Notes: generated by a model from the letters alone, not told the origin. Counted from the first letter of the stretch, positions 4,003 to 19,950 are shown. The stretch is 64,000 bases of DNA from an uncultured bacterium (GCA_902761035.1 CACWIW010000004.1:3981-67980); one strand, 5' to 3'. Numbers and translations are program-made.

Positions 4003-4016
4003 CTGGAAATTCCCCC

Positions 4017-4045
4017 TTGCGCGCGCGCCGGGAATCTGCTATACT
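4017..4045 (+). promoter_or_regulatory. Sigma70-like promoter for tRNA-Gln (TTGCGC-17-TATACT)
   Basis: TTGCGC at 4017-4022, a 17-nt spacer, TATACT at 4040-4045. The mature tRNA 5' end is at 4066. Confidence 0.4.
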
Positions 4046-4065
4046 ATGCGCCGTTTTCACCCCAT

Positions 4066-4139
4066 TGCCTCATGGTGTAATGGTAGCACCGCAGATTCTG
4101 AATCTGCTTGTTAAGGTTCGAGTCCTTATGAGGCAACCA
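4066..4139 (+). tRNA. tRNA-Gln (anticodon CTG), CCA encoded
   Basis: Hand-folded 74-nt cloverleaf: acceptor TGCCTCA/TGAGGCA, D stem GTGT/GCAC, anticodon stem GCAGA/TCTGC with loop TTCTGAA, 4-nt variable loop, T arm TAAGG-TTCGAGT-CCTTA, discriminator A, then CCA. Confidence 0.9.
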
Positions 4140-4542
4140 TTCCGCAAAACCTGCGGACTCTCGACGTTGGATGCGTCGGGCCGAGCACGCCACCGATGCA
4201 GTCAATGATTTCGCCGCCGGCCTTCTTGAAGTAACCTCCAATTATGGATTTCGATGATTCAGGAACGAGAATTGCTGGAAACAACCGGGCGAAAGTCGCG
4301 GATTATCTCGGGCAGCTTGAAGGCACACCACTGTGGGAGAAACGCATCAAACTTGCGGCGCAAGTATAAAATTGGTCTTTTAGGCTTCATGCGCTGATAT
4401 TATATCACTAATCTGCCACACTAGGCAACCCTCAAACATATTTTATGAGCGAACTTTCCATAGAATCTGCCATTTTTATGAGCGAAGTTCTCAGATTCCC
4501 ATTCGACGTTCTCCATTGGCGTAGGAATTGCGGTCACGCGCG

Positions 4543-5124
4543 CTATCGCTTCGCCGCCGCGACTCGCTTCACGATCTCGGCCACGGCCTTCCACTTCTTT
4601 CGGATGACGGACCGTTTCGCGAACTTGGCGGGAATCTTCCCCTTGTGCTTCACGAAGAGCATGAAGGTTTCGGCGAAGTCCTCCTGCGTGGCAGAAGTGG
4701 CGTATTCAGAGACATAGCGGGTTCCCCACCCCGCCGCGACGCACTCTTCCGCAGGATCTTCGCCGTAGGCGCCACCGAACGCGGCGCGGAACAATCCGCC
4801 CTTCTTCAGCGCGCCCGGATACAGGTCCGCGAGCGCGTGCCCGAACTCGTGACGAATCACGTCAAGCGCGTTCGCCTTCACGCCCAGGTCGCGCCAGAGA
4901 GCCGCGATTGGCAGATACATTGACGGGAATTCAATAGTCTTCTCCTTCTCCTGATAGCGTCCCATCGTCCCTGTAAATGTCATGCTCGGCGCAATCGTCA
5001 GGTACGTGCACCCGACCCCGTCCAGTTTTGATCCATCCCACAGGACGCCGAGACGCCAGAGTTCCATACGGACCTTGTTGTAGGCCCGATTCACTTCGTT
5101 GCGCGATGTGTAGATTTGGCCCAT
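4543..5124 (-). CDS. Putative zincin-like metallopeptidase (HEFGH motif)
   Basis: 193-aa ORF with IRHEFGHALAD (HExxH). An acidic EDFAETF segment lies ~55 aa downstream, where the third zinc ligand of gluzincins would sit. Last gene of the island operon. Confidence 0.55.
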   Translation of the reverse strand: MGQIYTSRNEVNRAYNKVRMELWRLGVLWDGSKLDGVGCTYLTIAPSMTFTGTMGRYQEKEKTIEFPSMYLPIAALWRDLGVKANALDVIRHEFGHALADLYPGALKKGGLFRAAFGGAYGEDPAEECVAAGWGTRYVSEYATSATQEDFAETFMLFVKHKGKIPAKFAKRSVIRKKWKAVAEIVKRVAAAKR

Positions 5125-5190
5125 GATGTTCTTTCATTACCCTGCTACGTACATTTCTCGTTGGGATTGCTTTCGAGTCCCAACAATCAC

Positions 5191-6177
5191 CTACCAGTTT
5201 AGCTTATCTTTCGGCTTCAGCTGCCTCAGCACTGTCATACCCTCGGCGTAGCCCTGCTTGATAAATCGCTTTGCGCACTCACCATTGAAGGCCAGAGTAC
5301 CAGACCAGATGCGAATCTGGCGAGAGAGAGCATCAACACTTTGTGTAAGTTTCCCTACAAATGGAACGTCGTTTAGGAAACCGAAACTTGGCAACAAGTC
5401 GCTTGCGACATCCAACAGTCCTCGCAGTGAGCTACGGGGACGCACCTCGACTAATGTTGTGCCGCGCGGGATGGTGGCATCAATCGCTTCCGGTTCGTCA
5501 GCGGCACAATTACACCGCACGACGATGATCGTACGGATGTCGGGCCGACGTTCGAGAATCTGGGAGACGGGGATGTTGTCCCCGCCCATTGCCTCCCAGG
5601 AACCATCGACATACCTCCTGCCGTTTAGATCCACCGGAGCAAATCCCCATGGGATGGCCGCAGAGGCAAGTAGCTGCTTGATTCTGTTGTCTGCGTTCAC
5701 TTCCTCGTTCAGAAAGAAACATTGTCTTTCATAGCAGTCCGAATCAAATGTGCTGAGCAATCCCCCTCGGCATTCAAGCGTAGTGGCGTAGACTTCCGGC
5801 GCCCCTTCTGGCCATATTCTAGGAAGCAGTCTAGAAAGAATCGTTTCCAGAGCGCTACGGTCAAGAAGCCCCTGGAACGGGAATGGTTTCCCCGACAACA
5901 CGTCTTTGAGGGCAACGATGAACTGACCCGGCACTAGATTTGAAAGATTTGGCGTGGCGATGTCACCGACTTTTGTGTGCCAGAACCGGCAAATCTTCTC
6001 CGGATCACGTAACGCAGCAAACGCCGCAGCGTTGATCGCTCCGGCGGAAGTGCCAGAAATCACGCTAACCCGATCGGCAAGACCGAGTTCGCACATCGCC
6101 TTCCAGACACCAGCCTGGAACGCCCCTTTCGCGCCGCCGCCAGAGAGGACGAGCCCAATTGAATCATCATTTCCCAT
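5191..6177 (-). CDS. Patatin-like phospholipase
   Basis: Oxyanion box LSGGGAKGAFQAG, nucleophile elbow GTSAGA (GxSxG), catalytic-Asp region YVDGS. 4 nt separate it from the M48 gene stop. Confidence 0.85.
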   Translation of the reverse strand: MGNDDSIGLVLSGGGAKGAFQAGVWKAMCELGLADRVSVISGTSAGAINAAAFAALRDPEKICRFWHTKVGDIATPNLSNLVPGQFIVALKDVLSGKPFPFQGLLDRSALETILSRLLPRIWPEGAPEVYATTLECRGGLLSTFDSDCYERQCFFLNEEVNADNRIKQLLASAAIPWGFAPVDLNGRRYVDGSWEAMGGDNIPVSQILERRPDIRTIIVVRCNCAADEPEAIDATIPRGTTLVEVRPRSSLRGLLDVASDLLPSFGFLNDVPFVGKLTQSVDALSRQIRIWSGTLAFNGECAKRFIKQGYAEGMTVLRQLKPKDKLNW

Positions 6178-6180
6178 ATT

Positions 6181-7017
6181 CTACCAACTCAGTTTTGCTT
6201 TTCCAATCGTTTCGCCGAGCGTAACGGCTGGACGATATCCTGCGAACCACTTCTTCACCTCTGCGGCACGGACGGCAGGATACGGATGCGAAGCATCCTT
6301 TATCATCCAGTTCTGCAGAAACTTACTCTTGCCAGAATCCTTCATGAACTTCTGGTATTCGGCGGCTTGTTGGACGAACTGCTCCATGTCCACGCGTTCG
6401 GTGATGCGCGTTCCACCTCCGGCAAGACGCATCATCGTGCGAGCGACGACATCAGCGTCATTTGTCACGTATGCCGCCACACGGTCAGCGGAAAACTCAC
6501 TCCGGCGAATCCAGTACATGAGCGCCCACTGCAGCGGCTCGGAGATGATGCCGAGACCAAACAATCCTCCAATGCCGCCCCCTGCGGAAACGAGCAGACT
6601 TGCAAGGGAATGGTAGAGAACATGTCGGCAGAGGATATGCCCGCATTCGTGCGCGATGACAGCCCTCAACTCTTCCTTGGAAAGTAAGTCGATGATACCT
6701 GAGTTCACGACGACGAACGGCTTGGTGTCACCGTATGTGTAGGCATTCGGGATCGGATCCATTTCAAGGAACATTTCCGGTTCCGGTATCTGAAGCGTTT
6801 CGCAAGTATCCTTCAGAATCGCATAAAGTTCGGGAAGTTGCGACGGCCCGAGCTTGATCTTTGAAGCCATGTTGATACCGTGCATCATGTCCTCGGTGAC
6901 AGACTGCATGAATTTCTTCATGAGCGTGTCAAGCCCCGGGATTGCCTGTAGCTTGTTCAACGCATCCCGATCTTCGGGGTGAATGAATGGTTTGTAGTCG
7001 ATGGGCATAGTGAACAT
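6181..7017 (-). CDS. M48-family zinc metallopeptidase
   Basis: AHECGHILCRH (HExxH) followed by hydrophobic segments and SEFSADR, typical of M48/HtpX-like peptidases. 278 aa. Confidence 0.8.
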   Translation of the reverse strand: MFTMPIDYKPFIHPEDRDALNKLQAIPGLDTLMKKFMQSVTEDMMHGINMASKIKLGPSQLPELYAILKDTCETLQIPEPEMFLEMDPIPNAYTYGDTKPFVVVNSGIIDLLSKEELRAVIAHECGHILCRHVLYHSLASLLVSAGGGIGGLFGLGIISEPLQWALMYWIRRSEFSADRVAAYVTNDADVVARTMMRLAGGGTRITERVDMEQFVQQAAEYQKFMKDSGKSKFLQNWMIKDASHPYPAVRAAEVKKWFAGYRPAVTLGETIGKAKLSW

Positions 7018-7050
7018 TCCTCTCTTTGAATGACATTGGATGAAAAATTA

Positions 7051-7791
7051 CTACTTTCCTTTCGAAAAAATCTTTCGGAAAAATCCGCTGCACCTTGTAC
7101 GAATCTCAGAAAACCACTTTCGCTTCGGCGGATGAAGTAACACATCAACATCTTTACGACAAGTTTCGAGCTCCTTGCGAAGCTCAGTTACTTCTTCTTT
7201 GAGAAGCTTATTTTCGTCTCTAGCACAATTGAGATTTGCCTTGGCGTCGTCAATAAGTCGCTGCAATTCTGCGACCTTGTCCGGCACTGCCTGAAACTGC
7301 TTCTCGGCACTTTCCACACGAACACGACAGCGCTCAACCTCATTAGAGAGAGTGTCTGTCTTACTCTTGAGCTCGCCGTTGTCTTTCAAGATACTGTCGA
7401 GATTCGTTATGACCGAGTTGACTAATGTTGTAAGTTCGGCACGGACTGCCTCACGCACAGCCTCGCGCACAGCATCAGGGATTACGTTGAGGCGCTGATC
7501 TAAGGCGTCTAAGCGTTTGCCGGCGACTTCAATACACTTCCACGCCGTCCACTCGCCTTTCGGAAGCGGTCCATTGAGCTGCTTGTATGCGGTAAACGCT
7601 TTATCACGCAATGATCGGAGTTCGGAGTATATGTCCTCTCCTGGATTGAGCTTGAGTTCATTGATAGCCCTCCAAAGCGCCTCCTTGTTCTCGTTTTCTT
7701 TATGAAAGGCATTCAAATGGTCTTGAAAATCATCCCAAGACGGAACATAGACATCACCTCCAAATACTCCTTGCGACACTCTTACCGACAT
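7051..7791 (-). CDS. Coiled-coil protein, unknown function
   Basis: 246-aa ORF. The C-terminal half has heptad-like, charge-rich sequence (ELKSKTDTLSNEVERCRVRVESAEKQFQAVPDKVAELQRLIDDAKANLNCARDENKLLKEEVTELRKELE). No motif I recognise. Confidence 0.6.
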   Translation of the reverse strand: MSVRVSQGVFGGDVYVPSWDDFQDHLNAFHKENENKEALWRAINELKLNPGEDIYSELRSLRDKAFTAYKQLNGPLPKGEWTAWKCIEVAGKRLDALDQRLNVIPDAVREAVREAVRAELTTLVNSVITNLDSILKDNGELKSKTDTLSNEVERCRVRVESAEKQFQAVPDKVAELQRLIDDAKANLNCARDENKLLKEEVTELRKELETCRKDVDVLLHPPKRKWFSEIRTRCSGFFRKIFSKGK

Positions 7792-7804
7792 AATGCGGCA
7801 CCTT

Positions 7805-8278
7805 TCATTTCGCCTTCCTCGACGAAGTCGGTCTCTTCTTAGCTATATTTCGTTTTGCCGTAACCGGCCTAGTACTGGATGACATTACAGTTTTCTTACG
7901 CACTGCGGACTTGCGTGTCTTTCCAATCTTCTGCTTCGCCTTCTCCATCGGCAATTCGACCCCAAGATGCTGTGCCAGCAAGCGGTAGTGGGGCGCAAGC
8001 AGTTCCTTGATCACCCCTTGGAATGTTTCACGCGCCGTCTCGACAATCTTCTCGATTTCTTTTTGTGCTACGGCGGCGATCTTTGCCGCAGAAGCTGCCT
8101 GAACAGACATCTTGGCAAGCTTGCGCTCCTGCGCTTCCATTTTACTGTCAATGTCGCCAATTTCCAGTCCGATTACTTCTGCCACAATATTCTTAACGTC
8201 GGCCCGCGTCAAGATATCGACCGTTCTAGTCTCGTCGCCGGTCAAGTGGCTTACAGTCACGAAAGTATGTCTAGCCAT
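7805..8278 (-). CDS. Small protein with Lys/Arg-rich C-terminal tail, unknown function
   Basis: The ORF track starts at 8305. I prefer the ATG at 8278 (MARHTFVTV), which follows GGAGGA by 5 nt and lies just after the upstream stop (8290). The tail is KAKQKIGKTRKSAVRKKTVMSSSTRPVTAKRNIAKKRPTSSRKAK. Confidence 0.55.
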   Translation of the reverse strand: MARHTFVTVSHLTGDETRTVDILTRADVKNIVAEVIGLEIGDIDSKMEAQERKLAKMSVQAASAAKIAAVAQKEIEKIVETARETFQGVIKELLAPHYRLLAQHLGVELPMEKAKQKIGKTRKSAVRKKTVMSSSTRPVTAKRNIAKKRPTSSRKAK

Positions 8279-8289
8279 AACCATCCTCC

Positions 8290-9045
8290 CTATGCGGCAT
8301 TCCACCGCTTTTTGAATTCCACCACGAAACGATCCACGATCCTATTGATCTCACGTTCCGGATTCGCTACCGCGTGTTTGAGCAACTCAAGCGGAAGATT
8401 CCTCAGGAAGTCACGAACGGGAATGAATCCGCTACGGACGAGCATCTCGTTGCGAAGAGCGTCATCAACTGCGGAGATACCAAGATCATCTTCCGCGTAC
8501 GAACGTATCTTCCGAATGTCTCTCGTGTCACCCTGAGAAACGGAATCTATCAAACCGAGGCCAAACCGCGCCCAAAGAATGTTAAGCGGAATGACGAAGT
8601 GGCCGTCCAGCGGGATTATCAAGGACTTCAACCCCTTGTTTTCCAGCTCAGCTTCGATCGTCTCAACGATGTCACCGTTTTCTTCAGGCGACCACTTCTC
8701 GGAATTCCTACAGTTCAGGAGAAAGATCATTTGCTTCCCCTGTTCTCGGACTCGTTTGAAAACATCTGCACAGGTTTCCCCTAGCGACTTGCTTTCATGG
8801 ACATAAATCACCACGTTCGACATGTCGATGGCAGATGCAGCCGTACCGTCATCCTCGCCATTCGCATCGAATCCCGGTGTGTCGATGATGGAAACGGCCG
8901 GTGACAGCGAATAAATGACGTTCTCATGCGTGGTAGAAAGTCCCCGCCCCATTTCGGCGACATTGCGACCAACAAGCGCATTTACCAATGATGATTTTCC
9001 GCGCTGAAATCCACCGACAATGGAGATTGTCAAGACTGTGCTCAT
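8290..9045 (-). CDS. Small dynamin-type GTPase (paralog of 11983-13074)
   Basis: G1 VGGFQRGKSSLVNAL, G3 IIDTPG. Shares the blocks FLLNCxNxExWSP and IEAELxNxG with the 363-aa paralog. ATGA overlap with the upstream 966-aa gene. Confidence 0.75.
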   Translation of the reverse strand: MSTVLTISIVGGFQRGKSSLVNALVGRNVAEMGRGLSTTHENVIYSLSPAVSIIDTPGFDANGEDDGTAASAIDMSNVVIYVHESKSLGETCADVFKRVREQGKQMIFLLNCRNSEKWSPEENGDIVETIEAELENKGLKSLIIPLDGHFVIPLNILWARFGLGLIDSVSQGDTRDIRKIRSYAEDDLGISAVDDALRNEMLVRSGFIPVRDFLRNLPLELLKHAVANPEREINRIVDRFVVEFKKRWNAA

Positions 9046-11942
9046 CCGGCCAACTCCTTTGTGACGGTTGAGGCAAAAGCCTCGATCCGCTTACGCAACG
9101 GTTCAATGACATTAATGCGTTCGGCCCTGTTTGCCTCGGCGATGCGCTTGCGCTCTTCAAGGGATTTGCCAAACTGTGTTTCAGGTTCCCTTACACGCTC
9201 TGCCTCAAAGTCGGTCTTTAGTGAACCAAGACGCGAAATGAGTTTTTGTCGTATTCCCTCAAGACCTTGTCTAAGCTGATCTTCCAGAGGCTGTCTGATT
9301 TTGTCTTGAAATCGGATATCATTGACAGAATCCTCTATATTCTTGCGGAATTTGCTCGCCGTCTCCACAATCAAAGCATTGCGCCGCTGTTCCTTGGCAA
9401 TTTTGTTTCTTTCTGGCGCAGATGGGTCAATACCTCCTATCTTTGCCAATTCAGCAAAGAGCCAAAGCAAAAAGTCCAACAGGTTTTTGAAATTATTCAG
9501 CAAAAAAGTCTTGATATCTGTCGCACCGTGGACGATGTCAATCACCTGCCGGTTTTCCAATAGGACATTGGACAGATTATCGCATAACTCGCCGACGTCT
9601 TCCTCGGGGACGCTGGGAGGCTCAAATCCATCCAACATTTCGCTCTCGTTGATCTTCCGTTCCTTCCAAAGTTCGTGGATGTCACTGCAGACAAAAGCCA
9701 ACGATTTTCGAAGCCGTCCAACACCATCGCCTTGACGCCACTGCTCCAGTGCGCGGCTCATGGCACCCTTCAAAGCCCCCGCAAATTTCGGGGTTATGTC
9801 ACGCTTGATAGCTTGAGCCAGCTTCTCGGCGCTCCAGAAGAATCCGGCATTCACGGTTGATTCGGCCAAATGATAGGAAAGGTCAGTCACCAATCGATTC
9901 CCGATGGCAAGCTCAAGAATTGATCGAGCCAAACTATTTACCATTGAGTCAAGGCCCTCTCCCAAAACAGATCTTTCAACTTTCCCATTGGCGCGATCTA
10001 CAAAATCAGCTAATTGCCTTTTCGCATCTTCGACCTTGACCTTCCATTCTGCCTCTTTTTCCTCCGCAGCCTTCTCGGAGGCTCTAAGAACACCTTCGTA
10101 GGCGCTGAGCGCCTTGGCCGCACGGTCGCTGCCGCGATTCACGAGAATGCTTTCGGCCTTAAGCGGAATGATGTCATTGTTTAACTTGGAGATGATTACA
10201 TCCAATTGGCTCGCCTGCCGAGCAATTTCTACGGATGCCGACGTTAATTCATCGATACTTGCGAGATTATCATCTTCAATCATAGTGCCGACTTTATGAA
10301 CCATCTTCACCCACATGGAAGACAACGAAGAAGCTCCGTCCTTGACTTTAGCGTCACGGCGCATATTTGCCTCATCCAAATCGCTGAACAAGTCGTGGTG
10401 TTTCAAGAGCAATTCACCCTGCGTGGAAAGGAAAGCCAAGCGCGCGCTGTAAGGGACAACATCCAAAGATCGTCCCATATTGGCGAGCAAGCTTTTCGTC
10501 ACATCTAGAATCTCCGTTGATTTGACATCCCATTCTGACCAAATATTGGCCGTGGTCTGGATTTTTCCATCAAGTCCCCAATTGGCGATCCGCTGAATGG
10601 CCCTCTTGTCATGATCACCCAACTGCTTGTCGCCATAAATTAGATACCAGACAGCGTCGGCATGGCGAATCGCTCTCTCCGCCACACAGGTGTCAAAGGC
10701 ATTGGCAAAGAGGCCGGGGCAGTCCGTAATGCGGCAGCCCAGCCGTTGGAGATTTTCGGAATGGAGTCGAACCAAAACGGAACGAACAAATACAAATGCA
10801 ACCTCATCAAACTCAAAATGGGCGTTGCAGCCATCCCGCCACCGTGTCTCCCAGTCTTTTGGGAAAGCGACTAGTTTTTGAAATTGATTGATGGGCAGCG
10901 TAGCGTTCTCAACCAGTTCCTTTTGCCCATCCGTTCCGAAAAAACGGAGCTGGAGCGTGGCGATGCGCAATTGGTCGAGGCGATCTCGCTCCCAGTTTGC
11001 CTTGTCAGATTCCCACTTTCGCCACAGACCATCTGCGGTACTGCGAAGAAGGTTCATTATTTCCGGTCTTCGCAAATCGGCCAACTTAGGAAACCCGTCA
11101 TCGGTATCGATAGCATCTTCATATTCTTCGTCGGAGAGATTTGAGTTTAAGCTCCGCAATTCTTTTGAAGCCATCAGCTCTCCACGAAGGATGGTTGAAA
11201 TTCCCAGGGAAAGTTCATCTGGGGACTTATAACTTACCTCTGCCCATTCGGCAAGGCCGTCCTTCGTCTCGTTTCCCGAAATATTCTGGGCTGTGACAAC
11301 GGCAGCGCTCGTCTTAATGCCACTGCCGCGCGGGGAGATGTCGCGACCATCGCAGAGTGCGTTGAAAGTGGTGGACTTCCCGCCCTGATACTCGCTGACG
11401 AGGGCGATTTCAAAGGCATCCTCCTGACACTTACACGTTGTCAGGCGAAGTTCATCGGCGTATTTCTTTGGCACGTTCAGAGCGGAAGCTTCCTTCAAGA
11501 GGGCAAGCAATTCGTTGCGGCGGAATTCATACCATCTCGCACGGTCTTTGATATTGACGATCCGTGTTTCATCAGTTTTCGCCGTCCAGATGATATCGCC
11601 GTTTTCAAAATGTGAGATTCGGTCGTTCGGATCGCTGTCGCCATCGTAGGCTTCCTCGTCAGAAATCGGATGCCCGAGTGAACCTCGTTTGCCTGAAATG
11701 TCGAAAGCCCCCCACTCCTTGTACCAGCGCCTACCAATCGTACCATGGATTTCATGGGGTTCGGTCTCGCCGGGGCGTATCACAATCGCGCACCAATCCT
11801 GGTAGTTACACTGCCATCCACCGTCGAGGGTACGATAGATTCCAGGTTCTATTGGTTCGCCAACATAATATCCGCGTTGCTTCATCCAGTCGTATTTGGC
11901 CTGGAATTTGGAAAGGACATCAGCTGGGATGTTAGCGTTCAC
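9042..11942 (-). CDS. Large dynamin-like protein with N-terminal LGFP-like repeats (paralog of 13083-15650)
   Basis: G1 SEYQGGKSTTFNAL (aa 183-191), G3 ITDCPG (aa ~405-410), then ~550 aa of helical stalk-like sequence. It aligns by eye along its whole length with the 855-aa ORF. The extra ~128 N-terminal aa resemble LGFP repeats. Confidence 0.8.
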   Translation of the reverse strand: MNANIPADVLSKFQAKYDWMKQRGYYVGEPIEPGIYRTLDGGWQCNYQDWCAIVIRPGETEPHEIHGTIGRRWYKEWGAFDISGKRGSLGHPISDEEAYDGDSDPNDRISHFENGDIIWTAKTDETRIVNIKDRARWYEFRRNELLALLKEASALNVPKKYADELRLTTCKCQEDAFEIALVSEYQGGKSTTFNALCDGRDISPRGSGIKTSAAVVTAQNISGNETKDGLAEWAEVSYKSPDELSLGISTILRGELMASKELRSLNSNLSDEEYEDAIDTDDGFPKLADLRRPEIMNLLRSTADGLWRKWESDKANWERDRLDQLRIATLQLRFFGTDGQKELVENATLPINQFQKLVAFPKDWETRWRDGCNAHFEFDEVAFVFVRSVLVRLHSENLQRLGCRITDCPGLFANAFDTCVAERAIRHADAVWYLIYGDKQLGDHDKRAIQRIANWGLDGKIQTTANIWSEWDVKSTEILDVTKSLLANMGRSLDVVPYSARLAFLSTQGELLLKHHDLFSDLDEANMRRDAKVKDGASSLSSMWVKMVHKVGTMIEDDNLASIDELTSASVEIARQASQLDVIISKLNNDIIPLKAESILVNRGSDRAAKALSAYEGVLRASEKAAEEKEAEWKVKVEDAKRQLADFVDRANGKVERSVLGEGLDSMVNSLARSILELAIGNRLVTDLSYHLAESTVNAGFFWSAEKLAQAIKRDITPKFAGALKGAMSRALEQWRQGDGVGRLRKSLAFVCSDIHELWKERKINESEMLDGFEPPSVPEEDVGELCDNLSNVLLENRQVIDIVHGATDIKTFLLNNFKNLLDFLLWLFAELAKIGGIDPSAPERNKIAKEQRRNALIVETASKFRKNIEDSVNDIRFQDKIRQPLEDQLRQGLEGIRQKLISRLGSLKTDFEAERVREPETQFGKSLEERKRIAEANRAERINVIEPLRKRIEAFASTVTKELAG

Positions 11943-11982
11943 GGATTAACTCCTTTGCGATGAATGTTGGGTTGGGTGATGG

Positions 11983-13074
11983 CTAGTGCTTGCCGAAATT
12001 GGCGAGAAATGCCCGCAGTGCGACCTTTGCTTTTTCCGTGGCTTGTATTACGGTTGGCGCGATGGTGCCGCGAAACACAGTAGTCGTTGCAGCAGCGGCC
12101 GAGTTGAGTGCATTACCGGCCTTGGTTGCTGCGACTTTGGTTTCTCTCGCAACTGCGTTGGCCGCGTTCGCCACCACCGGCGCGACCCTTTCATAGATTG
12201 CGCCGACACGTCTCCTCGCCTCATCAAGCCAAGACGCCATGCCGTCCTTCTTTCCGAGTTCGGCTAATTTCTGGCGAAGAGCGGGGAAACCGCATCGCGC
12301 CATGATGGCAGAAGGTGAGGGATCGTCAATGCCGAGTTCGTCTTTGGCATAGCACCTGATTCGCTTTTCGACACGCTCGGCGTCACGCCTAACCCGCTCA
12401 TCGGGGGAATCCTTGTCGCGCGACAGTTGGCCTGTAGCATACCAAGCCCAAAGCGCATTGACTGGATGGACAAGACGTTCCCCTACGCGCAGGAAAAGAT
12501 TCGCTACGCCCATATTTGCCAGTTCAGCCTCGATAGCCGAGCCGATTTCGGCATTCTGCGGATCGTCCGGCGACCAGCATTCTGGATTGGTACAATTGAG
12601 CAGGAACAAGCAGCGTTTCCCTGGGACACAGGCTTCGTGGACAATCTTCCGGCAGACATCACCCATGGCTTTCGCCTCTTGGACGATCACGACGACCGAC
12701 GAGGCCTTGATTGCAACCGACGCGGATTTGTCATCGGTATCCTGCGCGTTGTAGCCAGGAGTGTCGACGACATCTATGTACTGCAGGAGAGGCTTGTAGG
12801 CGGATATGCGGAACCAATCGTCGGGGCCGACCTCGCGGGATGGGTCGAAAACATCCTGACGGCGGGCGAGACGCTCGCCGTCAGGGTTGGTGCCGTGGAA
12901 GAGCCAGACTTCCTCGGCCTCCCCGTAGCGAAAGAGCGTCGAGGCGGCCGTGGTGCGCAACCCCTTGCCGGTTGGGGCGTAGCGGTCATCTAGCAGACAG
13001 TTGACAAGCGTCGATTTGCCTATTTGGAAGCCGCCCACGATAGCGACCACAGGTTTTTCGCTGTGGAAGTCCAT
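11983..13074 (-). CDS. Small dynamin-type GTPase with Ala-rich C-terminal extension
   Basis: G1 VGGFQIGKSTLVNCL, G3 VVDTPG. Paralogous to 8290-9045. Alanine-rich amphipathic tail (VVANAANAVARETKVAATKAGNALNSAAAATT). Starts 8 nt after the stop of the 855-aa gene. Confidence 0.75.
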   Translation of the reverse strand: MDFHSEKPVVAIVGGFQIGKSTLVNCLLDDRYAPTGKGLRTTAASTLFRYGEAEEVWLFHGTNPDGERLARRQDVFDPSREVGPDDWFRISAYKPLLQYIDVVDTPGYNAQDTDDKSASVAIKASSVVVIVQEAKAMGDVCRKIVHEACVPGKRCLFLLNCTNPECWSPDDPQNAEIGSAIEAELANMGVANLFLRVGERLVHPVNALWAWYATGQLSRDKDSPDERVRRDAERVEKRIRCYAKDELGIDDPSPSAIMARCGFPALRQKLAELGKKDGMASWLDEARRRVGAIYERVAPVVANAANAVARETKVAATKAGNALNSAAAATTTVFRGTIAPTVIQATEKAKVALRAFLANFGKH

Positions 13075-13082
13075 TGCTGCAC

Positions 13083-15650
13083 CTAAGCCGAAAGATCGAC
13101 AATGACCGCGTCCTTGAACGCATCGATCCGCTTGCGCAGCGGCTCGATGGTCTGAGTACGAATGGCATGGATTTCGGCGGCAATCTTCTTGCGCTCTTCG
13201 ACAGACTGTCCGAACATCTTGTCCGGTTCGGCGACACGCTCTTTCTCAAAGTCTTTCTTGAGATCTTCAAGCCTGTTACGCAGAATATCCTCGATTTTCT
13301 GCACCGAACCTACAAGTTCTTCGTTCAGCGGTTTGACAATGCCGTTGCGGAAGGTAGAATCAGATACGGCCTTTGCAATCTCAGGACGGACTTTACCGAA
13401 GATTCTATCTATTTCCCGTTTCAGTCTCTCAATCTCCGCTCGTTCACGCTCCTCCTCACTGCGAGTCAAATCCCAGATGGCCTTTCCGATGAAGACAGCA
13501 GCTGTAAGTGGGAAACAGACAATTCCTCCAATGAACCCAAGAAGCATTGGCCAGATAACCTCCCAGATAACCGTGAAAATGCCTCTCCGCCCTTTCTCTG
13601 CTATTTCGCTGATATTTGTGCCACCCATGACTTTTTCAGAAAGATTTCCGCAAACACCCGTTATGTCTTCCAGAGAAACAGTTGGCGTTGAAAAACCACG
13701 AAGCATCTCAACGTCGCTTAACTGACGATCTGCCCACAAATCATGAATCTCGTCACATACATTAGACAACGAACGACGAAGGCGATCAAGGGAATTGCTA
13801 CCTGATTTAGCCTTCCATTCTTCGATTGCGCAAGTCAATGCGTCTTTGAAGTCCTCCGCCAAGACAGGTGTCATTCGAGCGACAAGATCCCGTTCCATGG
13901 CTTTCCGCGTCATGTAGAATTCGCGGCTGGTAATCCTAAGTATGGCTGCGATGTCATTTGCGAGGATATCAATGAATTGATCGCCTAAGGCCATGTCAAC
14001 AATCTCCGTTGCCATAACCTTGGCGAGCATGTCTTTCGATCCCGCGAAAGACGAACGATCGATTGTTGTATTGGCCCTTTCGACAAAATCCGCCAGCTGC
14101 CTGCGGGCGTCTTCAACCTTGGCGCGCCATTCTTCTTCCTTTGCCAGAGCGGCGTCTTCAGTTGCCTTCAGAACGCCTTCGTAGGCGAGAAGCGCCTTGG
14201 AGGCGCGGTCGCTGCCGCGGTCAACGAGGATACTTTGCGCCTTCTGGGGAATTATCTCGTTTTCAAGACGGGAGAGAATACCGTCGAGCAGACTTTCGCG
14301 GCGCACGACGGCAATGGATTCAGCATCAAGTTCCTGGATGTCCTCAACATTCTCGAGCTCAGTTGACCCTCCGACACGTCGTACCATCTTAGCCCACATG
14401 GTTTCCGGCGCAGGATCACCTTCCTTGACCTTTGCGTCGATGCGCATGTTGGCTTTGTCGAGACTGGAGAAAAGCGATGCACGGTTGAGAAGCAGGTCGC
14501 CCTGCATGGCGAGGAACGCGAGGCGGGCGTTGTAAGGAAATACCTCAACGGCATGTCCTGCATTGGCGAGGGCGGCCTTTGTGGCGGGAATGATCTCGGC
14601 TATCTTCTGCTCATGCGGCCCCTTGAGGTTACTCGTGGCCTCGATTTTCCCGAGCATCCCCATCGCGGCGATGGCGCGGATGATTTCAAGATCCTTCTGC
14701 CCAATCTGCTTCTCGCCGTTTATAAGATACCAGACGGCATCGGCGTTGAGGATTGTGCGCCGCGCCACACTGGTGTCGTATGCGTTGGCAAAGAGGCCGG
14801 GACAGTCCGTTATGCGGCAGCCGAGCCGCCGGAGATTCTCCGAGTGTATACGCACGAGGACAGACTGCACAAATACAAAGGCCACTTCGTCAAGCGTGAA
14901 CTGCGAGTCCGGCCCGTTCATCCAGCGGACCATCCAGTCTTTAGGGAAGGCGATCAGCTTCTGGAACTTGTCGATGGGCAAAACAGCCTGCGAAACCATC
15001 TTATGGTATTCTGCGCTATTGTAGAAACGCAATTGCAGCGTGGCAATGCGCAATTCGTCCAGCTCGTCGTCAGAAAGCGACGTCTTGTCGTTGCGCCACT
15101 TGCTCCAGAGCACGTTAGTTGCACTCTTTAGCGCGGTGCGGCATTCGTCGTTGTCAAGATCGACAAGGCCAGGAAAGCCATCGTCCGTCGCGATTGCCTC
15201 CGCATATTGCTCGTCGGACAACTTGGAGTTGAACCTGCGGAGAGCCTCGGAATCGATAAGCGGACGGCGGAGGATTGTGGAAAGGCTGAGCGCTATAGCA
15301 CCAGGTGTCTTGAAGGTCACTTCCGCCCATTCCGGCAAGCCGTCTTTCGTTTCGTCACCGGCGATATTCTGCGCCGAAATGACTGCGGCGCTCGTCTTGA
15401 TGCCGCCACCGCCGAGCCCGCGCGGGGAGATGTCGCGACCGTCGCAGAGCGCGTTGAATGTCGTGGATTTGCCGCCTTGGAACTCACCAACGAGGGCAAT
15501 CTCAAAGGAGTCCTCCTGGCACTTGCGCGAGGTTTGACGGAGTTCGTCCGCGTACTTTTCGGGAAGATCTAACGCCGTGGCCTCCCGAAGGAGTTCGAGG
15601 AGTTCGTTTCGACGTGTTTCGTACCACTTGGCTGTGTTGTCGTTAGTCAT
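13083..15650 (-). CDS. Large dynamin-like protein with hydrophobic hairpin
   Basis: G1 GEFQGGKSTTFNAL (aa 55-63), G3 ITDCPG (aa ~280-285), helical stalk. Hydrophobic hairpin GIFTVIWEVIWPMLLGFIGGIVCFPLTAAVFIGKAIW near the C-terminal third, at a BDLP paddle-like position. Confidence 0.8.
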   Translation of the reverse strand: MTNDNTAKWYETRRNELLELLREATALDLPEKYADELRQTSRKCQEDSFEIALVGEFQGGKSTTFNALCDGRDISPRGLGGGGIKTSAAVISAQNIAGDETKDGLPEWAEVTFKTPGAIALSLSTILRRPLIDSEALRRFNSKLSDEQYAEAIATDDGFPGLVDLDNDECRTALKSATNVLWSKWRNDKTSLSDDELDELRIATLQLRFYNSAEYHKMVSQAVLPIDKFQKLIAFPKDWMVRWMNGPDSQFTLDEVAFVFVQSVLVRIHSENLRRLGCRITDCPGLFANAYDTSVARRTILNADAVWYLINGEKQIGQKDLEIIRAIAAMGMLGKIEATSNLKGPHEQKIAEIIPATKAALANAGHAVEVFPYNARLAFLAMQGDLLLNRASLFSSLDKANMRIDAKVKEGDPAPETMWAKMVRRVGGSTELENVEDIQELDAESIAVVRRESLLDGILSRLENEIIPQKAQSILVDRGSDRASKALLAYEGVLKATEDAALAKEEEWRAKVEDARRQLADFVERANTTIDRSSFAGSKDMLAKVMATEIVDMALGDQFIDILANDIAAILRITSREFYMTRKAMERDLVARMTPVLAEDFKDALTCAIEEWKAKSGSNSLDRLRRSLSNVCDEIHDLWADRQLSDVEMLRGFSTPTVSLEDITGVCGNLSEKVMGGTNISEIAEKGRRGIFTVIWEVIWPMLLGFIGGIVCFPLTAAVFIGKAIWDLTRSEEERERAEIERLKREIDRIFGKVRPEIAKAVSDSTFRNGIVKPLNEELVGSVQKIEDILRNRLEDLKKDFEKERVAEPDKMFGQSVEERKKIAAEIHAIRTQTIEPLRKRIDAFKDAVIVDLSA

Positions 15651-15671
15651 TTTTCATTCACTTTTGTCTTC

Positions 15672-15695
15672 CCCACCCGTCTTGCGACGGGTGGG
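15672..15695 (-). other. Intercistronic GC-rich hairpin (10-bp perfect stem, 4-nt loop)
   Basis: CCCACCCGTC-TTGC-GACGGGTGGG, between the stop at 15707 and the start at 15650. No U-tract follows on the transcribed (minus) strand. Confidence 0.5.
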
Positions 15696-15706
15696 ATTAA
15701 GGGTAT

Positions 15707-18016
15707 TCAGAATGTCTTAGTAAGTGCAGCTAGGGCACCAGCGGCGGCATTGGTGAGGCGTGTCTTCTCGTCTGGAGCGGGCGTGAGTTCGTCACGCCAA
15801 TTGGCGACGATGATGCGGAATGCTTCATCAGAGTTCTTAGATCGGATGAAAGCGTCAAAAAATGTTTCCACGACGGCCGCGAAGATGCGGTTGGGACAGA
15901 AGCTCTGGGCGGAACCCATCGATTGCTCCAGCATCGCAATCACGTCGGCGCGAACCGAGGCGTCCGGGATTGCCTTTTCAAAGAGCCTCTTCTTACGCTC
16001 CAACGCGGCGGTATTTCCGGTGCCGGACTTGCGCATGGCCGTTGAATACGCTTCGGCCGCTTCCTTCAATTTCGCGTCGAGCGCAGCTAGGGTTTCCTGC
16101 ACGGCGTTCGCGTCGGACTCGGACACGTCCGGAAATCGCTTAGGTTCAAGGGAATCCGTTGCCGCATGGAGCAACGGTTCCAGATGGAAACGGAACTGGA
16201 GGTCGAATTCCGCAATCCTCCGAAGCGGAGCGGAAAGCTCTCGCAGGATTGCCGCATCCCCGGGATACTTCGTGCGTTCGTCGATTCGGTCGGCCAGGGC
16301 GACGATTTGGGCCCTGACGGCAGCCAGCCGTGCGGAGGGGCTGTCCGAGGCCGGGGTTGCTTTCGCAGGAACGAACCCATTCAAGTACCGGTTGGCCCGG
16401 AGCGAATCCATGACATCCGACAACAGCCGCGCGATCCGGTCGGTCAGATGCAGGTCCATCGTCTCCCATTGGTCGCGGAATTTCACGCGGAAATCGTTGA
16501 TGAAGAGCTGCGGCCGCCCGTGTTCCTTCGTAATCGCGCTCTTGACGACCCGACGCAATTCTTCGGGCGAACCGTATCCGAATCCTTCTGCTCCCCAGCG
16601 GAGAACTTGTTCCTTGACGTTGGAAACGGCGTCGTTCCACTCCTTGTCCTCTCCGCGCGTCTTTTCCACGGCGGAATCCCGCTGGCGTTCCAGAATGTCC
16701 TGGGTTTCGTTGTGGAGCATTGCCGCGAACACATTGGGATTCACGGAATCCAGACCGAGCGCAGGGACCTTGGTTCGGGCAGACTCCACTGCATTTCGAG
16801 CGGAGGCAAGGGCCGCTTCCGCTTTTGCGTTTTGGCGGGACAGGATGGCCGCGTCGATGACGGGGAGGTTTTTCGCGAGGAAATCCAGAATGCGCGGCAT
16901 CGCAACTTGATTCACCTTGTCCTTGCAGTGGGCGTCGCATTCAATTGTCTCGAACGGACGATCAACCTTCGCCCGGAAGTTCTCTACACAACTTTGTAAC
17001 CGATCCGGCGTCGAAGCATCATTAAAGAGAACTAACGTGAATTTCGTCTGATCCTCAACATCTGGAACGACTCTCTGCATCGCATCCAGCGCGGTAGTGT
17101 CGGCCTTCAACCATTCGACACGGCCATCTATCGGCACCTTTTTCACAAGTATCGTGATGTCGCAGCTGTTCCGAAGATTTTCAGTCTGAGCTTTCGCCAG
17201 ATTTATGCCCGCCTCGCCTATGCCAGGGAGATCGACAACACGGAGTTTGGCGAAGTCAGTGGCCGGGAACGGAGCCTTAACCACGAGGTTCGCGACAGCT
17301 AGAAACGGACCTGCTTTCGTCTTTCCATCCTCAGGGTATGCCACAAACTGACGTAGTTCCGGCAGTGAGATTGAGACGGCCCTTCGTCCTGTAAGATAGG
17401 ACTCGTATCCCGTCAGATGTAATTTTGCGTGCTCCAGTCTCTTTATAATATCGAGGTTGTTCTGGTTCTCCTCAACGCCCTGCGGAAGTTCCACGTGTAG
17501 GTCACGGAAGGCTGCCATGCTGGTCGGCGCGGGGATTCCGATCTCACTGCACAAAGGTGCGATAACCTCGGAGAGGAATGATTCAGGCGAGTGAAAGTCC
17601 GCGATTGCGGCCTTTTCGTCCAGACTGTTCTCAATCAGACTTCGGACGGCCGTGGTACAGTATAGGTCGCCAGTAGGGATTTCGTTTTCTGAGAGCCCTG
17701 TTGCGGATTGGATGAATGTGCTTTTCCCCATACCCGCCGTACCGCCGATGCCGATGCACAGAGTTTCCCGTGCGAAACGGACACGGACAAGGGCATAGTC
17801 AGCGAGAACGCCTCGCACGGCTTCCGCAGCCGAACGAAGCTGGACGGACGCTCCGTGCAGGTCGGAATTGGCGCATTCGGCGGCTTCCGTTTTAGCGATG
17901 ACTCCCTCCAGCGCGATTTCACGAGATTTCCACGCGGCAATGGCCGCGTCAATATCTTTCAGGTGCGCTGCGCGTGTGGCGAGGATAGCATCAAGTTGGG
18001 CTGAGATGTTGCTCAT
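15707..18016 (-). CDS. Divergent P-loop GTPase, dynamin-like (LeoA/HP0731-type by recall)
   Basis: 769-aa ORF. G1 GIGGTAGMGKSTF (aa 88-100), G3 VVDLPGIGEAG (aa 260-270), a long helical C-terminus. No obvious hydrophobic hairpin. Confidence 0.65.
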   Translation of the reverse strand: MSNISAQLDAILATRAAHLKDIDAAIAAWKSREIALEGVIAKTEAAECANSDLHGASVQLRSAAEAVRGVLADYALVRVRFARETLCIGIGGTAGMGKSTFIQSATGLSENEIPTGDLYCTTAVRSLIENSLDEKAAIADFHSPESFLSEVIAPLCSEIGIPAPTSMAAFRDLHVELPQGVEENQNNLDIIKRLEHAKLHLTGYESYLTGRRAVSISLPELRQFVAYPEDGKTKAGPFLAVANLVVKAPFPATDFAKLRVVDLPGIGEAGINLAKAQTENLRNSCDITILVKKVPIDGRVEWLKADTTALDAMQRVVPDVEDQTKFTLVLFNDASTPDRLQSCVENFRAKVDRPFETIECDAHCKDKVNQVAMPRILDFLAKNLPVIDAAILSRQNAKAEAALASARNAVESARTKVPALGLDSVNPNVFAAMLHNETQDILERQRDSAVEKTRGEDKEWNDAVSNVKEQVLRWGAEGFGYGSPEELRRVVKSAITKEHGRPQLFINDFRVKFRDQWETMDLHLTDRIARLLSDVMDSLRANRYLNGFVPAKATPASDSPSARLAAVRAQIVALADRIDERTKYPGDAAILRELSAPLRRIAEFDLQFRFHLEPLLHAATDSLEPKRFPDVSESDANAVQETLAALDAKLKEAAEAYSTAMRKSGTGNTAALERKKRLFEKAIPDASVRADVIAMLEQSMGSAQSFCPNRIFAAVVETFFDAFIRSKNSDEAFRIIVANWRDELTPAPDEKTRLTNAAAGALAALTKTF

Positions 18017-18053
18017 TGGAACTGTTCCTGTTTGGGTTGATTGGTAAAATCGA

Positions 18054-18073
18054 CGGGGACGCTAGCGTCCCCG
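18054..18073 (-). other. Intercistronic 20-nt perfect palindrome / hairpin
   Basis: CGGGGACGCTAGCGTCCCCG between the stop at 18082 and the start at 18016. On the minus-strand RNA it is followed by UCGAUUUUA, so it could be a weak attenuator. Confidence 0.45.
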
Positions 18074-18081
18074 CCTGTGGA

Positions 18082-19800
18082 TTAAAGAGCGGCAAGTGCC
18101 GATTCGAGATCAGCCTTGGCGCTTTCAAGTGCGGCGCGGTCAGCAGATTCTGCGGGAGACGCGGCAAGAGCAGAACGGATGGCTTCGACTTGTGCCTTGT
18201 TATAGACCTCCATTGCCGCCTTGACATCGACAAATGTCTTTTCTATGCCATCATTTACCTGCTTCATCACCTGCGTAGACACATTCGGCTTCGCTTCCTC
18301 AAGTCCTTTCTTAACCTGCGAAAGGATCAACTTCTTCACACCCCATTCCGCAGGCGAAAAGTTCTCGCCGAGTAACATCTTTGCGATGATAGCCGTAATC
18401 CACCCAAAAGGCAGGATCACATTGAGGAGAGCTACTTCTATGGCCTTGATGACGAGCGTTGGGACTTTTGCCGCAATCGGCTTCTCGATTTTCAATTCAT
18501 CCGAAATGAAAACATTCCACGGCTTCCGACATTCATCCATATTCTTCGCATAGCGATCAATCAGGCGATTGACATCGGACTTGAGCTTGAGCGCAATGAT
18601 GGAAACCTTGTCCTGCAGATCAGACCTGAGTGTCGTACTCGCCCTCTCAAGGACCTTCTTCATCGCATCAACATCCTCCTTCTCGGAGAATTCCGCATAG
18701 AACTTGTCAAACACTGCATCGACTGCGAGATTGACATCGCGTTTGATGTCGTCGTTCAGCGCGCTCACTTCATCCTGGAACCGCTCGAACGCCAGTTCGG
18801 CCTGCTCCTTGAAGCGGGCGACTTCGGTTTCAACTCTGGCGGCAAGTGCTGCGCGCTCGGCATCGGATTTACCTGCTGTCGCAAGTTTGGTAGCAATGCC
18901 AGCGAGGTCTTTCTCAAGTTCAACTCGAAGGAGATTCGCAATCTTCTCCTCGCGACCGGGAAGTGCGTTATCCGCAAGGAACTGGCGGATAGTCATGCGG
19001 ATTTCGGCGACATCTGACATGATGTCCTCAACCGACGAATCAAAGCAGTACATCTCGACGGGGATGTTGTCGCGGCCCATGTTAGTGAGATCGGCCTTAA
19101 TCGTGCGAAGAATATCCTTGCGCTCTTCCTGATCCTGATTCATTGTCTTTGGATTGAATGAAGCGAGAACCATTAGGCGGGAGATACCGTTTCTGCCCAT
19201 GATTTCCTTGCGCAGAAGACCACGTTCTCTGTCTCCTAGCGTCTTATCGCCGCGGACAACGAGGAGTGCCACATCTGCAGTGGGGATTATGCGCCAGGTT
19301 GTATCAAGCAGGAGTTCCTGATTAGGATCGTCGAGTCCAGGCGTATCCACAACTGTGAAACCGCGAAGTGCTTCATTCGGAACTTTCACGGCAACACGGG
19401 CACGCTTCTTTGCGAGCTCGGCACGCGTTTCCATTGCACTGGAAACCGTTACATCATTCACATCATCCTCAGTCGGGTTCGGTATCGTCTTCGCGAGCGT
19501 CTCGCCAGTTCGGCTGGTATCAGTCCAGTCATAAACTTCAAGTATCGGTGACGAAGCGTATTCGATGTCGGTGGCGACAGCCGTCGTGCAAAGCCCCCGC
19601 CCTTCGGAGAGGAGCGGTTTGTCGCCGAGAAAAACGCGATTGATTAGCGTCGATTTGCCGACCTGGTATTCGCCGACGACAGCGACGCGGTACTGGGGAT
19701 TCTCCAATCCGGCAATCTGCTTCTCGAGATCGACGGGGAGTGTGAGGCCGTGCGCCTTAACAGCGCGTGCGGCGTTGCGGATGGCTTCCTGTTTGCTCAT
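18082..19800 (-). CDS. Bacterial dynamin-like protein (BDLP/LeoA-like)
   Basis: 572 aa. G1 VVGEYQVGKSTLINRV (aa ~42-57), G3 VVDTPGLDD (~aa 150), helical stalk. Hydrophobic hairpin PTLVIKAIEVALLNVILPFGWITAIIAKMLL. Confidence 0.8.
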   Translation of the reverse strand: MSKQEAIRNAARAVKAHGLTLPVDLEKQIAGLENPQYRVAVVGEYQVGKSTLINRVFLGDKPLLSEGRGLCTTAVATDIEYASSPILEVYDWTDTSRTGETLAKTIPNPTEDDVNDVTVSSAMETRAELAKKRARVAVKVPNEALRGFTVVDTPGLDDPNQELLLDTTWRIIPTADVALLVVRGDKTLGDRERGLLRKEIMGRNGISRLMVLASFNPKTMNQDQEERKDILRTIKADLTNMGRDNIPVEMYCFDSSVEDIMSDVAEIRMTIRQFLADNALPGREEKIANLLRVELEKDLAGIATKLATAGKSDAERAALAARVETEVARFKEQAELAFERFQDEVSALNDDIKRDVNLAVDAVFDKFYAEFSEKEDVDAMKKVLERASTTLRSDLQDKVSIIALKLKSDVNRLIDRYAKNMDECRKPWNVFISDELKIEKPIAAKVPTLVIKAIEVALLNVILPFGWITAIIAKMLLGENFSPAEWGVKKLILSQVKKGLEEAKPNVSTQVMKQVNDGIEKTFVDVKAAMEVYNKAQVEAIRSALAASPAESADRAALESAKADLESALAAL

Positions 19801-19950
19801 GTTGTTTCTTTTCCTTTCACGATTCTTGTCTTCCTGATGGCTTGCGCCCTTTCAGACATCGGCGGGGGCGGAAAACGGAAAACTCCTCCGATGCATCGCA
19901 AGAGATGAAGTCACTTGCGACGCTTCCCATGGCCGCAGGGGCGGCGGTCG

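Follow-up and report, generated by a model that had tools for sequence, protein, structure and literature searches.

Why does one bacterial locus hold, side by side, two copies of a module that couples a large dynamin-like gene to a small GTPase gene? The question is raised by a 64,000-nt stretch of DNA from an uncultured bacterium (GCA_902761035.1, CACWIW010000004.1:3981-67980), hereafter the window, in which positions 8290-15650 had been predicted to hold a tandem duplication of such a two-gene unit. Our analysis suggests that the two modules are ancient paralogs, that both remain functional, and that they form the centre of an operon encoding six GTPases, for which a role in conflict with phages is one plausible reading.

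The four genes lie on the minus strand. In the upstream module, largeA (13083-15650) encodes an 855-aa dynamin-like protein (DLP) that combines a G domain with a helical insert, a helical trunk and a hydrophobic hairpin, without an N-terminal accessory domain; it is followed by smallA (11983-13074), which encodes a 363-aa dynamin-type G domain without a stalk and with an Ala-rich C-terminal tail. In the downstream module, largeB (9042-11942) encodes a 966-aa paralog of largeA whose N-terminus holds an LGFP-repeat domain and whose paddle is no more than amphipathic, and smallB (8290-9045) encodes a 251-aa stalk-less dynamin-type G domain. The large proteins share 50% identity and 68% positives (BLASTP, 779 bits) over 850 aligned residues, much as the original prediction had estimated by eye; the alignment runs from end to end, which rules out a similarity confined to the P-loop region. 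The small proteins are 33% identical (E 4e-43) and differ by an insert of ~45-46 aa, which is located after switch I and before the DxPG motif, kept in smallA ('long' lineage) and lost in smallB ('short' lineage). On these alignments, the large and the small genes of the two modules are paralogous.

Both modules are tightly spaced, as had been claimed. The largeA/smallA junction reads TAG, GTGCAGCA, ATG, that is, an 8-nt gap, and at the largeB/smallB junction (GGATGA) the start of smallB overlaps the stop of largeB as ATGA. Seven other related loci (L001, L006 and L008-L012) show equally tight spacing of a large and a small gene, which either overlap by 4 nt or are at most 3 nt apart.

What kind of protein do the large genes encode? 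Pfam Dynamin_N places largeA just below the gathering score of 27 (24.9 bits) and largeB just above it (28.9 bits), and a profile of 51 large homologs had no sequence match among solved structures (best E 0.044). The relationship to DLPs is therefore revealed by fold comparison only. An AlphaFold2 model of largeA, built on the alignment of the same 51 homologs, reached a mean predicted local distance difference test (pLDDT) score of 81.7, and Foldseek matched it to SynDLP, IniA, Nostoc BDLP, Cj-DLP1/2, mitofusins, Fzo1, OPA1 and LeoA (E 6e-13 to 5e-4, probability 0.99-1.0); for 7zw6, 6j72, 2j69, 5owv and MFN1/2 the probability was 1.0 over 520-930 aligned columns. The model has the helical neck and trunk of the BDLP/mitofusin architecture, and its G domain carries a helical insert of ~145 aa between the strands at residues 108-113 and 261-268. 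GGKSTT (residues 59-64 in largeA numbering), T86 and DxPG (282-285) are invariant in the 51 homologs, both paralogs included. There is also an invariant N341 in 'SNLKG', and no conserved Asp at the G4 motif (N/T)KxD, which was assigned by eye. As the original prediction had proposed, the large proteins are thus dynamin-like, belonging by their modelled fold to the dynamin superfamily.

The small proteins are of the same kind. Dynamin_N gives 46.0 bits for smallA and 46.1 bits for smallB and is the best match by E-value for both, although in smallB its 46 bits are only narrowly ahead of MMR_HSR1 (45.7 bits). The TIGR00231 small_GTP model gives 18.8 and 26.2 bits, below its cut-off of 42.5, and smallA shares 30% identity with the G domain of the first operon protein, DLP572 (E 1e-15). 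Together these results rule out Ras-like small GTPases, so that the prediction of a 'small GTPase' after each large gene stands as to the presence and paralogy of these genes, but not in the Ras-like sense of that term. With GxxQxGKS, TT and DTPG (G1-G3) invariant in 10 small homologs, the small proteins are best described as complete dynamin-type G domains that lack a stalk. At their G4 position, read by eye at about residues 158-163 of smallA, the window proteins and close relatives have N-C-x-N, and distant homologs have N-C-x-D/T/E or N-G-x-D (N160-C161 in smallA numbering). In classical GTPases, an Asp-to-Asn change at the G4 position switches specificity towards xanthine nucleotides. It is tempting to speculate that the small G domains of the crown group, with Asn at the guanine-specificity position, might take a non-GTP nucleotide as a regulatory input.

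Two further GTPases precede the modules, each named here for the length of its product. DLP572 (18082-19800, minus strand) is the first gene of the operon and the first core gene in most related loci; its product has a hydrophobic paddle-like segment at residues 441-472, matches Dynamin_N with 51.1 bits and gives partial matches to the LeoBC and LeoA models of PADLOC. DLP769 (15707-18016, minus strand) has no Pfam match at all and no hydrophobic segment. Its GGxxxxGKST (residues 91-100), TT121-122, DLPG (262-265) and K292 are invariant in 36 homologs, and its AlphaFold2 model (pLDDT 85.0) matches SynDLP (Foldseek, 2.6e-11) as well as BDLP, IniA, Fzo1 and mitofusin. We rejected the possibility that DLP769 is a degenerate or divergent copy of the large gene, because profile-profile comparison with hhalign gave a probability of only 3.8%. 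The operon thus holds four full DLPs (DLP572, DLP769, largeA and largeB) and two proteins that consist of a G domain only, and their catalytic motifs appear to be conserved in all six.

The full-length proteins differ in their predicted membrane-binding tips. With hydropathy taken as the Kyte-Doolittle maximum over 19 residues, largeA (residues 703-721) reaches 2.33 and DLP572 2.01, as against 1.31 in largeB and 1.20 in DLP769, which bears out the prediction that, of the two large copies, only the 855-aa one keeps a strongly hydrophobic hairpin. In the model, this hairpin (13470-13589, minus strand; about residues 688-727), a putative membrane-inserted paddle, is covered by the helices at residues 680-711 and 713-727, where part of the C-terminal helical region has low pLDDT. 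Elsewhere in the family, a strong hairpin is kept in the A, A' and TIR-bearing clades (hydropathy 2.1-3.2), whereas all LGFP-bearing large proteins, in four separate subclades, have a weak amphipathic tip (0.8-1.8). The paralogs have probably diverged in function, with subfunctionalisation into hydrophobic-tipped members (DLP572 and largeA) and non-hydrophobic ones (DLP769 and largeB).

The N-terminus of the large proteins is variable: homologs either have no extra domain (~850 aa), an LGFP domain (~966 aa) or a TIR domain (~1000-1017 aa). The ~130 additional N-terminal residues of largeB relative to largeA contain the LGFP-repeat region (11529-11852, minus strand; about residues 31-138), in which Pfam LGFP matches residues 89-138 with 29.1 bits (cut-off 22) and a second, degenerate repeat can be seen by eye further upstream; the same N-terminus also matches the endolysin C-terminal region of PHROG 2998. 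TIR_2 (76 bits) is found at the N-terminus of five large homologs (P0012, P0022, P0026, P0028 and P0031). In addition, one small homolog carries LGFP and another carries a tetratricopeptide repeat domain.

How old is the duplication? In a codon alignment, third-position identity between the copies is 36% for the large genes and 29% for the small genes, and the rate of synonymous substitution (dS, by the NG86 method) is saturated and incomputable for both pairs, with a nonsynonymous rate (dN) of 0.45 and 0.67, respectively. Residual DNA similarity of 70-73% persists in patches at a spacing of 4083-4092 nt. Moreover, orthologs are closer than paralogs, since large proteins share 70% identity in A-A comparisons and 57-59% in B-B comparisons, as opposed to 51-53% between A and B. 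Because dS is saturated and each large copy is closer to orthologs elsewhere, the duplication is not recent but ancient. Both copies are likely to be functional, given the invariant G1-G3 motifs in the 51 large and 10 small homologs and dN/dS values of 0.13-0.24 against orthologs; indeed, all genes of the operon are under purifying selection (dN/dS 0.09-0.24).

Trees of the two gene types give different histories. Neighbour-joining of 138 large proteins, together with a bootstrapped subset of 24 taxa, recovered an A clade (window, L001 and L002; bootstrap 98%) and an LGFP-bearing B clade (window, L001 and L006; 100%), which join the TIR-bearing clade in a crown group that excludes the single-module lineage of L007 and L008 (64-74%). 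In the small-gene tree, the proteins that have lost the 45-aa insert form a monophyletic 'short' clade, consisting of smallB and its counterparts in L001, L006 and the single-module locus L008. The insert itself is ancestral, because it is present in smallA, in the small proteins of Kiritimatiellia, Lentisphaeria and Victivallales, and in the G domain of DLP572. The split between the small A and B types therefore appears to be older than that between the large ones and, with large and small types being paired differently from genome to genome, the two-gene unit was probably not duplicated as a pair. The phylogeny fits neither of the simple alternatives that had been posed for it, in-situ duplication of a pair or independent acquisition by this genome, and suggests instead a history of module shuffling within the family.

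Traces of such shuffling can be seen in a close relative, locus L002, whose largeA is 96% identical to that of the window. At 12002-12487, L002 encodes a 161-aa in-frame chimera in which residues 1-70 correspond to smallA and the last 91 residues are of largeB type, the final 22 being identical. This chimera is a deletion scar, from which it follows that the ancestor of L002 carried module B and then lost it. Similarly, DLP769 of the window and of L002 (7042-9369) share 58% identity with a dS of 1.9, whereas the neighbouring genes share 89-96% with a dS of 0.11-0.35. Since these neighbours are far more alike between the two loci, an allele or cassette replacement within the operon is probable.

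Composition had been put forward as a sign that the two copies differ in age or origin. Antisense open reading frames are indeed longer in the upstream copy, reaching 205 aa compared with 137 aa in the downstream copy, and the GC content at third codon positions (GC3) is 0.620 in largeA and 0.648 in smallA, versus 0.546 in largeB and 0.579 in smallB; the host flanks are at 0.85-0.86. The difference reaches significance in the large genes (0.074; bootstrap 95% confidence interval 0.028-0.119) but not in the small genes (0.069; -0.013 to 0.146), so that the upstream copy can be called the more GC-rich one in its large gene only. The signal is reproducible, because B-type modules have a lower GC3 than their operon neighbours in the window, in L001 and in L006. 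It is, however, weak evidence for a different origin, because it is smaller than the variation within a single gene: the 5' half of largeA has a GC3 of 0.70-0.73 and its last quarter one of 0.42-0.48, a drop that may reflect recombination mosaicism. The dominant signal is that of the whole island against the host, not of one copy against the other. Hence, the suggestion that the copies are not the product of a recent event is well founded, while the inference of separate origins from GC content is only weakly backed.

Taken together, these data make it very improbable that the modules arose either by a recent two-gene tandem duplication in situ or by independent acquisition from different donors. 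The adjacency of the copies, their shared gene order and the patches of residual DNA similarity would suit a recent duplication, which is ruled out by the saturation of dS and sits poorly with the closer orthologs elsewhere. Independent acquisition could draw on the GC3 difference of 0.07 and on the placement of the two small genes in different deep lineages; it is opposed by the occurrence of two-module or two-large arrangements in L001, L005, L028 and L031, by the L002 scar, according to which the ancestor of a close relative already had module B, by the near relationship of the two large genes within the family, and by the low GC content that the whole island shares.

In what setting do the modules operate? 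They occupy the middle of a run of 11 genes on the minus strand (4543-19800), with gaps of at most 66 nt. Downstream of smallB lies a gene (7805-8305) whose product, 157-166 aa long and without a family match, has homologs at the same position in L001, L006, L025 and L028-L031. It is followed by a 246-aa protein (7051-7791) with matches of coiled-coil type only, which has counterparts of ~210-235 aa after the small gene in L021-L023 and L028. Next is an HtpX-like M48 zinc metalloprotease (6181-7017; Pfam Peptidase_M48, 84.5 bits), which, at 81-91% identity across related loci, is the most conserved gene of the system. A patatin-like phospholipase (5191-6177; Pfam Patatin, 97 bits) comes after it, with weak, below-cut-off matches to a CBASS lipase model (31 bits versus 200) and to anti-phage phospholipase models. 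The last gene of the operon encodes a putative zinc peptidase of the Peptidase_Mx type (4543-5124; Pfam, 31.9 bits), which is found at the same position in GCA_016648615 (L028). Over 4000-20500, promoter and terminator predictions were no more numerous than in shuffled sequence, and the scan gave no convincing internal terminator. Within the interval between DLP769 and largeA (15651-15706, minus strand) there is a perfect 10-bp GC-rich hairpin, CCCACCCGTC-GCAA-GACGGGTGGG, with no T-tract after it, which may serve in RNA stabilisation or in transcription attenuation within the operon.

The operon coincides with an island of ~15-16 kb that has a GC content of 48-59%, compared with 63-68% in its flanks and a window mean of 60.5%. 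The island starts directly after a tRNA-Gln(CTG) gene on the plus strand (4066-4139; ARAGORN, and 62.8 bits in Rfam), where a GC step at ~4 kb marks its edge. The GC content of the system is below that of its own flanks in L002, L006 and L009 as well, and we regard the island as horizontally acquired. A search for att direct repeats linking the end of tRNA-Gln to the far edge of the island found none, the repeats detected being residual similarity between the large genes and short matches due to chance. At gathering thresholds Rfam reported the tRNA only, and the PHROGs matches were limited to coiled-coil noise and the endolysin tail that resembles LGFP. GC content also drops, to 51-56%, in a second patch ~8 kb away from the island. 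Its minus strand encodes a type II restriction-modification pair made up of an endonuclease resembling NotI (28212-29342) and a methyltransferase for C5-cytosine (29129-30877). Between this pair and a 1593-aa host-like gene lies a gene for a DUF7309/DUF6930 protein (26806-27837, minus strand), and another lower-GC patch (54-57% GC) contains a gene for an ATPase with AAA_14 and DUF4143 (58479-59831, minus strand).

Related loci show which parts of this arrangement are constant. Database searches with the large protein gave 291 relatives at E <= 0.001 out of 8,000 scored candidates; the 120 matches listed all come from metagenomes or metagenome-assembled genomes (MAGs), and just one of them bears a name, 'hypothetical protein'. 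Among representatives in GTDB, the family is found in Verrucomicrobia UBA6982, Kiritimatiellia, Lentisphaeria, Victivallales and Akkermansia, plus one Spirochaetaceae and one Bacteroidetes MAG; overall, it occurs mainly in gut, rumen and wastewater MAGs of the Planctomycetes-Verrucomicrobia-Chlamydiae (PVC) group. Neither plasmids and phages, searched by tblastn with largeA, nor the viral contigs of IMG/VR yielded any relatives. Across ~70 loci (the contigs L003 and L004 being identical to the window), the recurrent core consists of DLP572, DLP769, the large gene and the small gene; where the contig does not end at the large gene, a small gene nearly always comes next. Frequent accessories are the coiled-coil protein, M48, patatin, Peptidase_Mx, DUF445, a sigma-70 region 2 protein together with a protein kinase, and an XRE-type helix-turn-helix protein.

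A second large gene, with or without a small gene of its own, is present in a minority of loci (the window, L001, L005, L028, L031, L014, L016 and L017), and its arrangement varies. The order in L001 is LGFP-large, A-large and one short small gene, and in L028 it is large, long small, A'-large and short small. L006, which represents the closest GTDB genome (Verrucomicrobia bacterium UBA6982), has only a module of LGFP-large and short small genes. The additional large gene, alone or with its small partner, is thus in effect a variable add-on that appears to have been gained, lost and reshuffled. Some loci have further peculiarities: L005 has an extra gene for a 741-aa protein without a family match (6720-8945), placed between DLP769 and a TIR-bearing large gene, and the Lentisphaeraceae and Akkermansia loci L014, L016 and L017 have two or three large genes in tandem, along with a pair of DLP572-like genes.

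What, then, might such a system do? We favour, with a probability of roughly 0.5-0.55, a GTP-driven hetero-oligomeric membrane machine with an anti-phage or conflict role. The DLPs would form GTP-dependent heterotypic assemblies on the cytoplasmic membrane, in which the hairpin-bearing DLP572 and largeA would anchor in the bilayer and the hairpin-less DLP769 and LGFP-bearing largeB would act as peripheral partners. Each small G domain would dock on the G domain of its large partner, gating assembly and the hydrolysis of GTP. At its N-terminus, the large protein would offer a site for a swappable sensor or effector head (none, an LGFP domain for glycan or cell-wall-type binding or, in homologs, TIR), and the patatin lipase and the proteases would act downstream as membrane-directed effectors or processors. 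The system as a whole would remodel, seal or destroy the membrane at sites of attack, in the manner of the Leo-type 'Dynamins' and DynA, although it falls outside those families. A role in defence is favoured because of the TIR fusions, the patatin gene, the location of the island beside a tRNA gene, the turnover of modules and alleles, the NotI-type pair and the precedent of a two-gene dynamin system with P-loop-dependent anti-phage activity (Millman et al., bioRxiv 10.1101/2022.05.11.491447). More tentatively, one may picture an unrecognised immune machine in which a coat of four DLPs, controlled by two regulatory G domains and fitted with TIR, LGFP or no heads, recruits the lipase and the metalloproteases to the site of phage attack, as a prokaryotic counterpart of Mx- or GBP-style immunity.

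Several observations weigh against a role in defence. None of the window proteins has a TIR domain in the family scans; the neighbourhoods elsewhere are mostly housekeeping (IF2/RbfA/PBP, GroEL/DnaK and UvrB), and neighbours of the defence type turn up only here and there, as in L021 with YhcG and a PIN toxin-antitoxin pair; the dynamin models of PADLOC and NCBIfam give only fragmentary, below-cut-off matches; and support for the key node of the trees, built by neighbour-joining only, is moderate (64-74%). Furthermore, the M48 protease, DUF445, and the sigma-70 region 2 protein (of the extracytoplasmic function (ECF) type) with its Ser/Thr kinase fit envelope stress at least equally well. Indeed, the operon could instead be an envelope-stress or membrane-repair module akin to IniBAC, B. 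subtilis DynA or Psp/HtpX, whose DLPs patch or remodel damaged membrane; this alternative we find doubtful but worth serious thought. Here, M48 would clear damaged membrane proteins, patatin would remodel lipids, LGFP would read the cell wall, and the ECF-type sigma factor and Ser/Thr kinase would exert control. The protease is, after all, the most conserved gene of the system, DUF445, the sigma factor and kinase, and the XRE-type regulator recur beside the core, several genomes have housekeeping flanks, LGFP is a repeat of the cell-wall-binding type that also matches an endolysin C-terminal region, and DynA and IniA are documented as membrane-integrity DLPs. The TIR fusions at the N-terminus of large proteins, the patchy distribution, the low-GC island beside a tRNA gene with a new genomic context in each genome, and the swapping of alleles and the gain and loss of modules between close relatives nonetheless weigh against it, because they are atypical for a housekeeping stress regulon.

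It is unlikely that the system is a vesicle, secretion or endomembrane-shaping machinery specific to PVC bacteria, similar to LeoABC and unrelated to immunity or stress, even though the family is concentrated in Verrucomicrobia, Kiritimatiellia, Lentisphaeria, Victivallales and Akkermansia MAGs. Deletion of LeoABC cuts vesicle-associated cargo by ~50% (PMC4159319), and four DLPs with complementary anchors would be suited to tethering or fusion in the manner of Cj-DLP1/2 (Foldseek matches 5owv and 5oxf); against this, the system is not universal in these lineages, is horizontally acquired by our reading, and is also found in a Spirochaetaceae MAG, and TIR and patatin partners would be unexpected in such a role. 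Our literature search on dynamins in PVC bacteria found nothing specific to this family.

Set against known systems, the anti-phage machine that we propose most resembles the Leo-type systems, whose LeoA and LeoBC models are its best matches in the PADLOC defence library. Both comprise co-oriented, adjacent genes for dynamin-like GTPases on a horizontally acquired island, both combine a membrane-anchored partner with a soluble one (as predicted here), and LeoC provides a precedent for a separate gene with G-domain sequence only. In Bacillus, defence of the Leo type requires both P-loops (bioRxiv 10.1101/2022.05.11.491447), and Millman et al. put the co-localisation of the Leo-type operon with defence systems at about 60%. 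Leo-type systems, however, have two or three GTPases as opposed to six, the small protein here is an additional complete G domain and not half of a split one, and neither the M48, patatin and coiled-coil genes of this family nor its TIR or LGFP heads are found in Leo-type systems. The matches to the PADLOC models are partial rather than full-length (22-74 bits), the NCBIfam model for LeoA/HP0731 (NF041922) gives 20.9 and 28.6 bits against a cut-off of 325, and that for DynA (NF052648) gives 27.2 and 24.2 bits over ~110 residues against a cut-off of 1600, the fused architecture of DynA being absent. On these scores, the proteins should not be filed under LeoA/HP0731, DynA or the Leo families of PADLOC.

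Heterotypic DLP pairs and their relatives (Cj-DLP1/DLP2, DynA D1-D2, IniA/IniC, BDLP and SynDLP) share with the present proteins a G domain, a neck and trunk and a tip paddle (Foldseek E 6e-13 to 1e-6), paired or tandem genes and an asymmetry in membrane binding between partners, which is predicted here. Thus, the split between hydrophobic and non-hydrophobic tips recalls the asymmetric partners of DynA D1/D2, LeoA/LeoBC (PMC4159319) and Cj-DLP1/2. The proteins of this family differ in their G-domain insert of ~145 aa, their additional N-terminal domains and their stalk-less G-domain partners. Eukaryotic Mx, GBP and MFN/Fzo1 proteins offer a wider parallel, through the mitofusin-like hairpin of largeA, the Foldseek matches to MFN1/2, Fzo1 and MxA, and the concept of paralogs that form hetero-oligomers in cell-autonomous immunity, but the similarity is distant and at the level of the fold only (~10-13% identity). 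In TIR-STAND/Avs, Thoeris ThsB and CBASS CapV systems, the counterparts are the TIR_2 domain of homologs, the patatin of the operon and the principle of a variable head on a conserved NTPase chassis, although the chassis here is a dynamin-like TRAFAC GTPase and not a STAND ATPase, and no cyclase or signal-generating gene was found.

Almost all known bacterial DLPs are encoded by single genes, pairs or fused pairs, and what they do is poorly understood; our literature search found no description of a multi-DLP operon, of TIR- or LGFP-fused DLPs or of stalk-less dynamin G-domain partners. The present locus differs in being a conserved, mobile operon of six GTPases with stalk-less partners, a split between membrane-inserted and peripheral members, head fusions, and linkage to a lipase and proteases. 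Its variants with one module, two modules or a deletion scar, together with its swapped alleles, offer natural material for dissecting how heterotypic DLPs assemble. If it serves in envelope repair, no bacterial DLP machine yet described would be as elaborate. If it serves in defence, it would tie dynamin mechanics directly to the logic of TIR or lipase effectors, and would widen the parallel with the eukaryotic immunity conferred by Mx and GBP.

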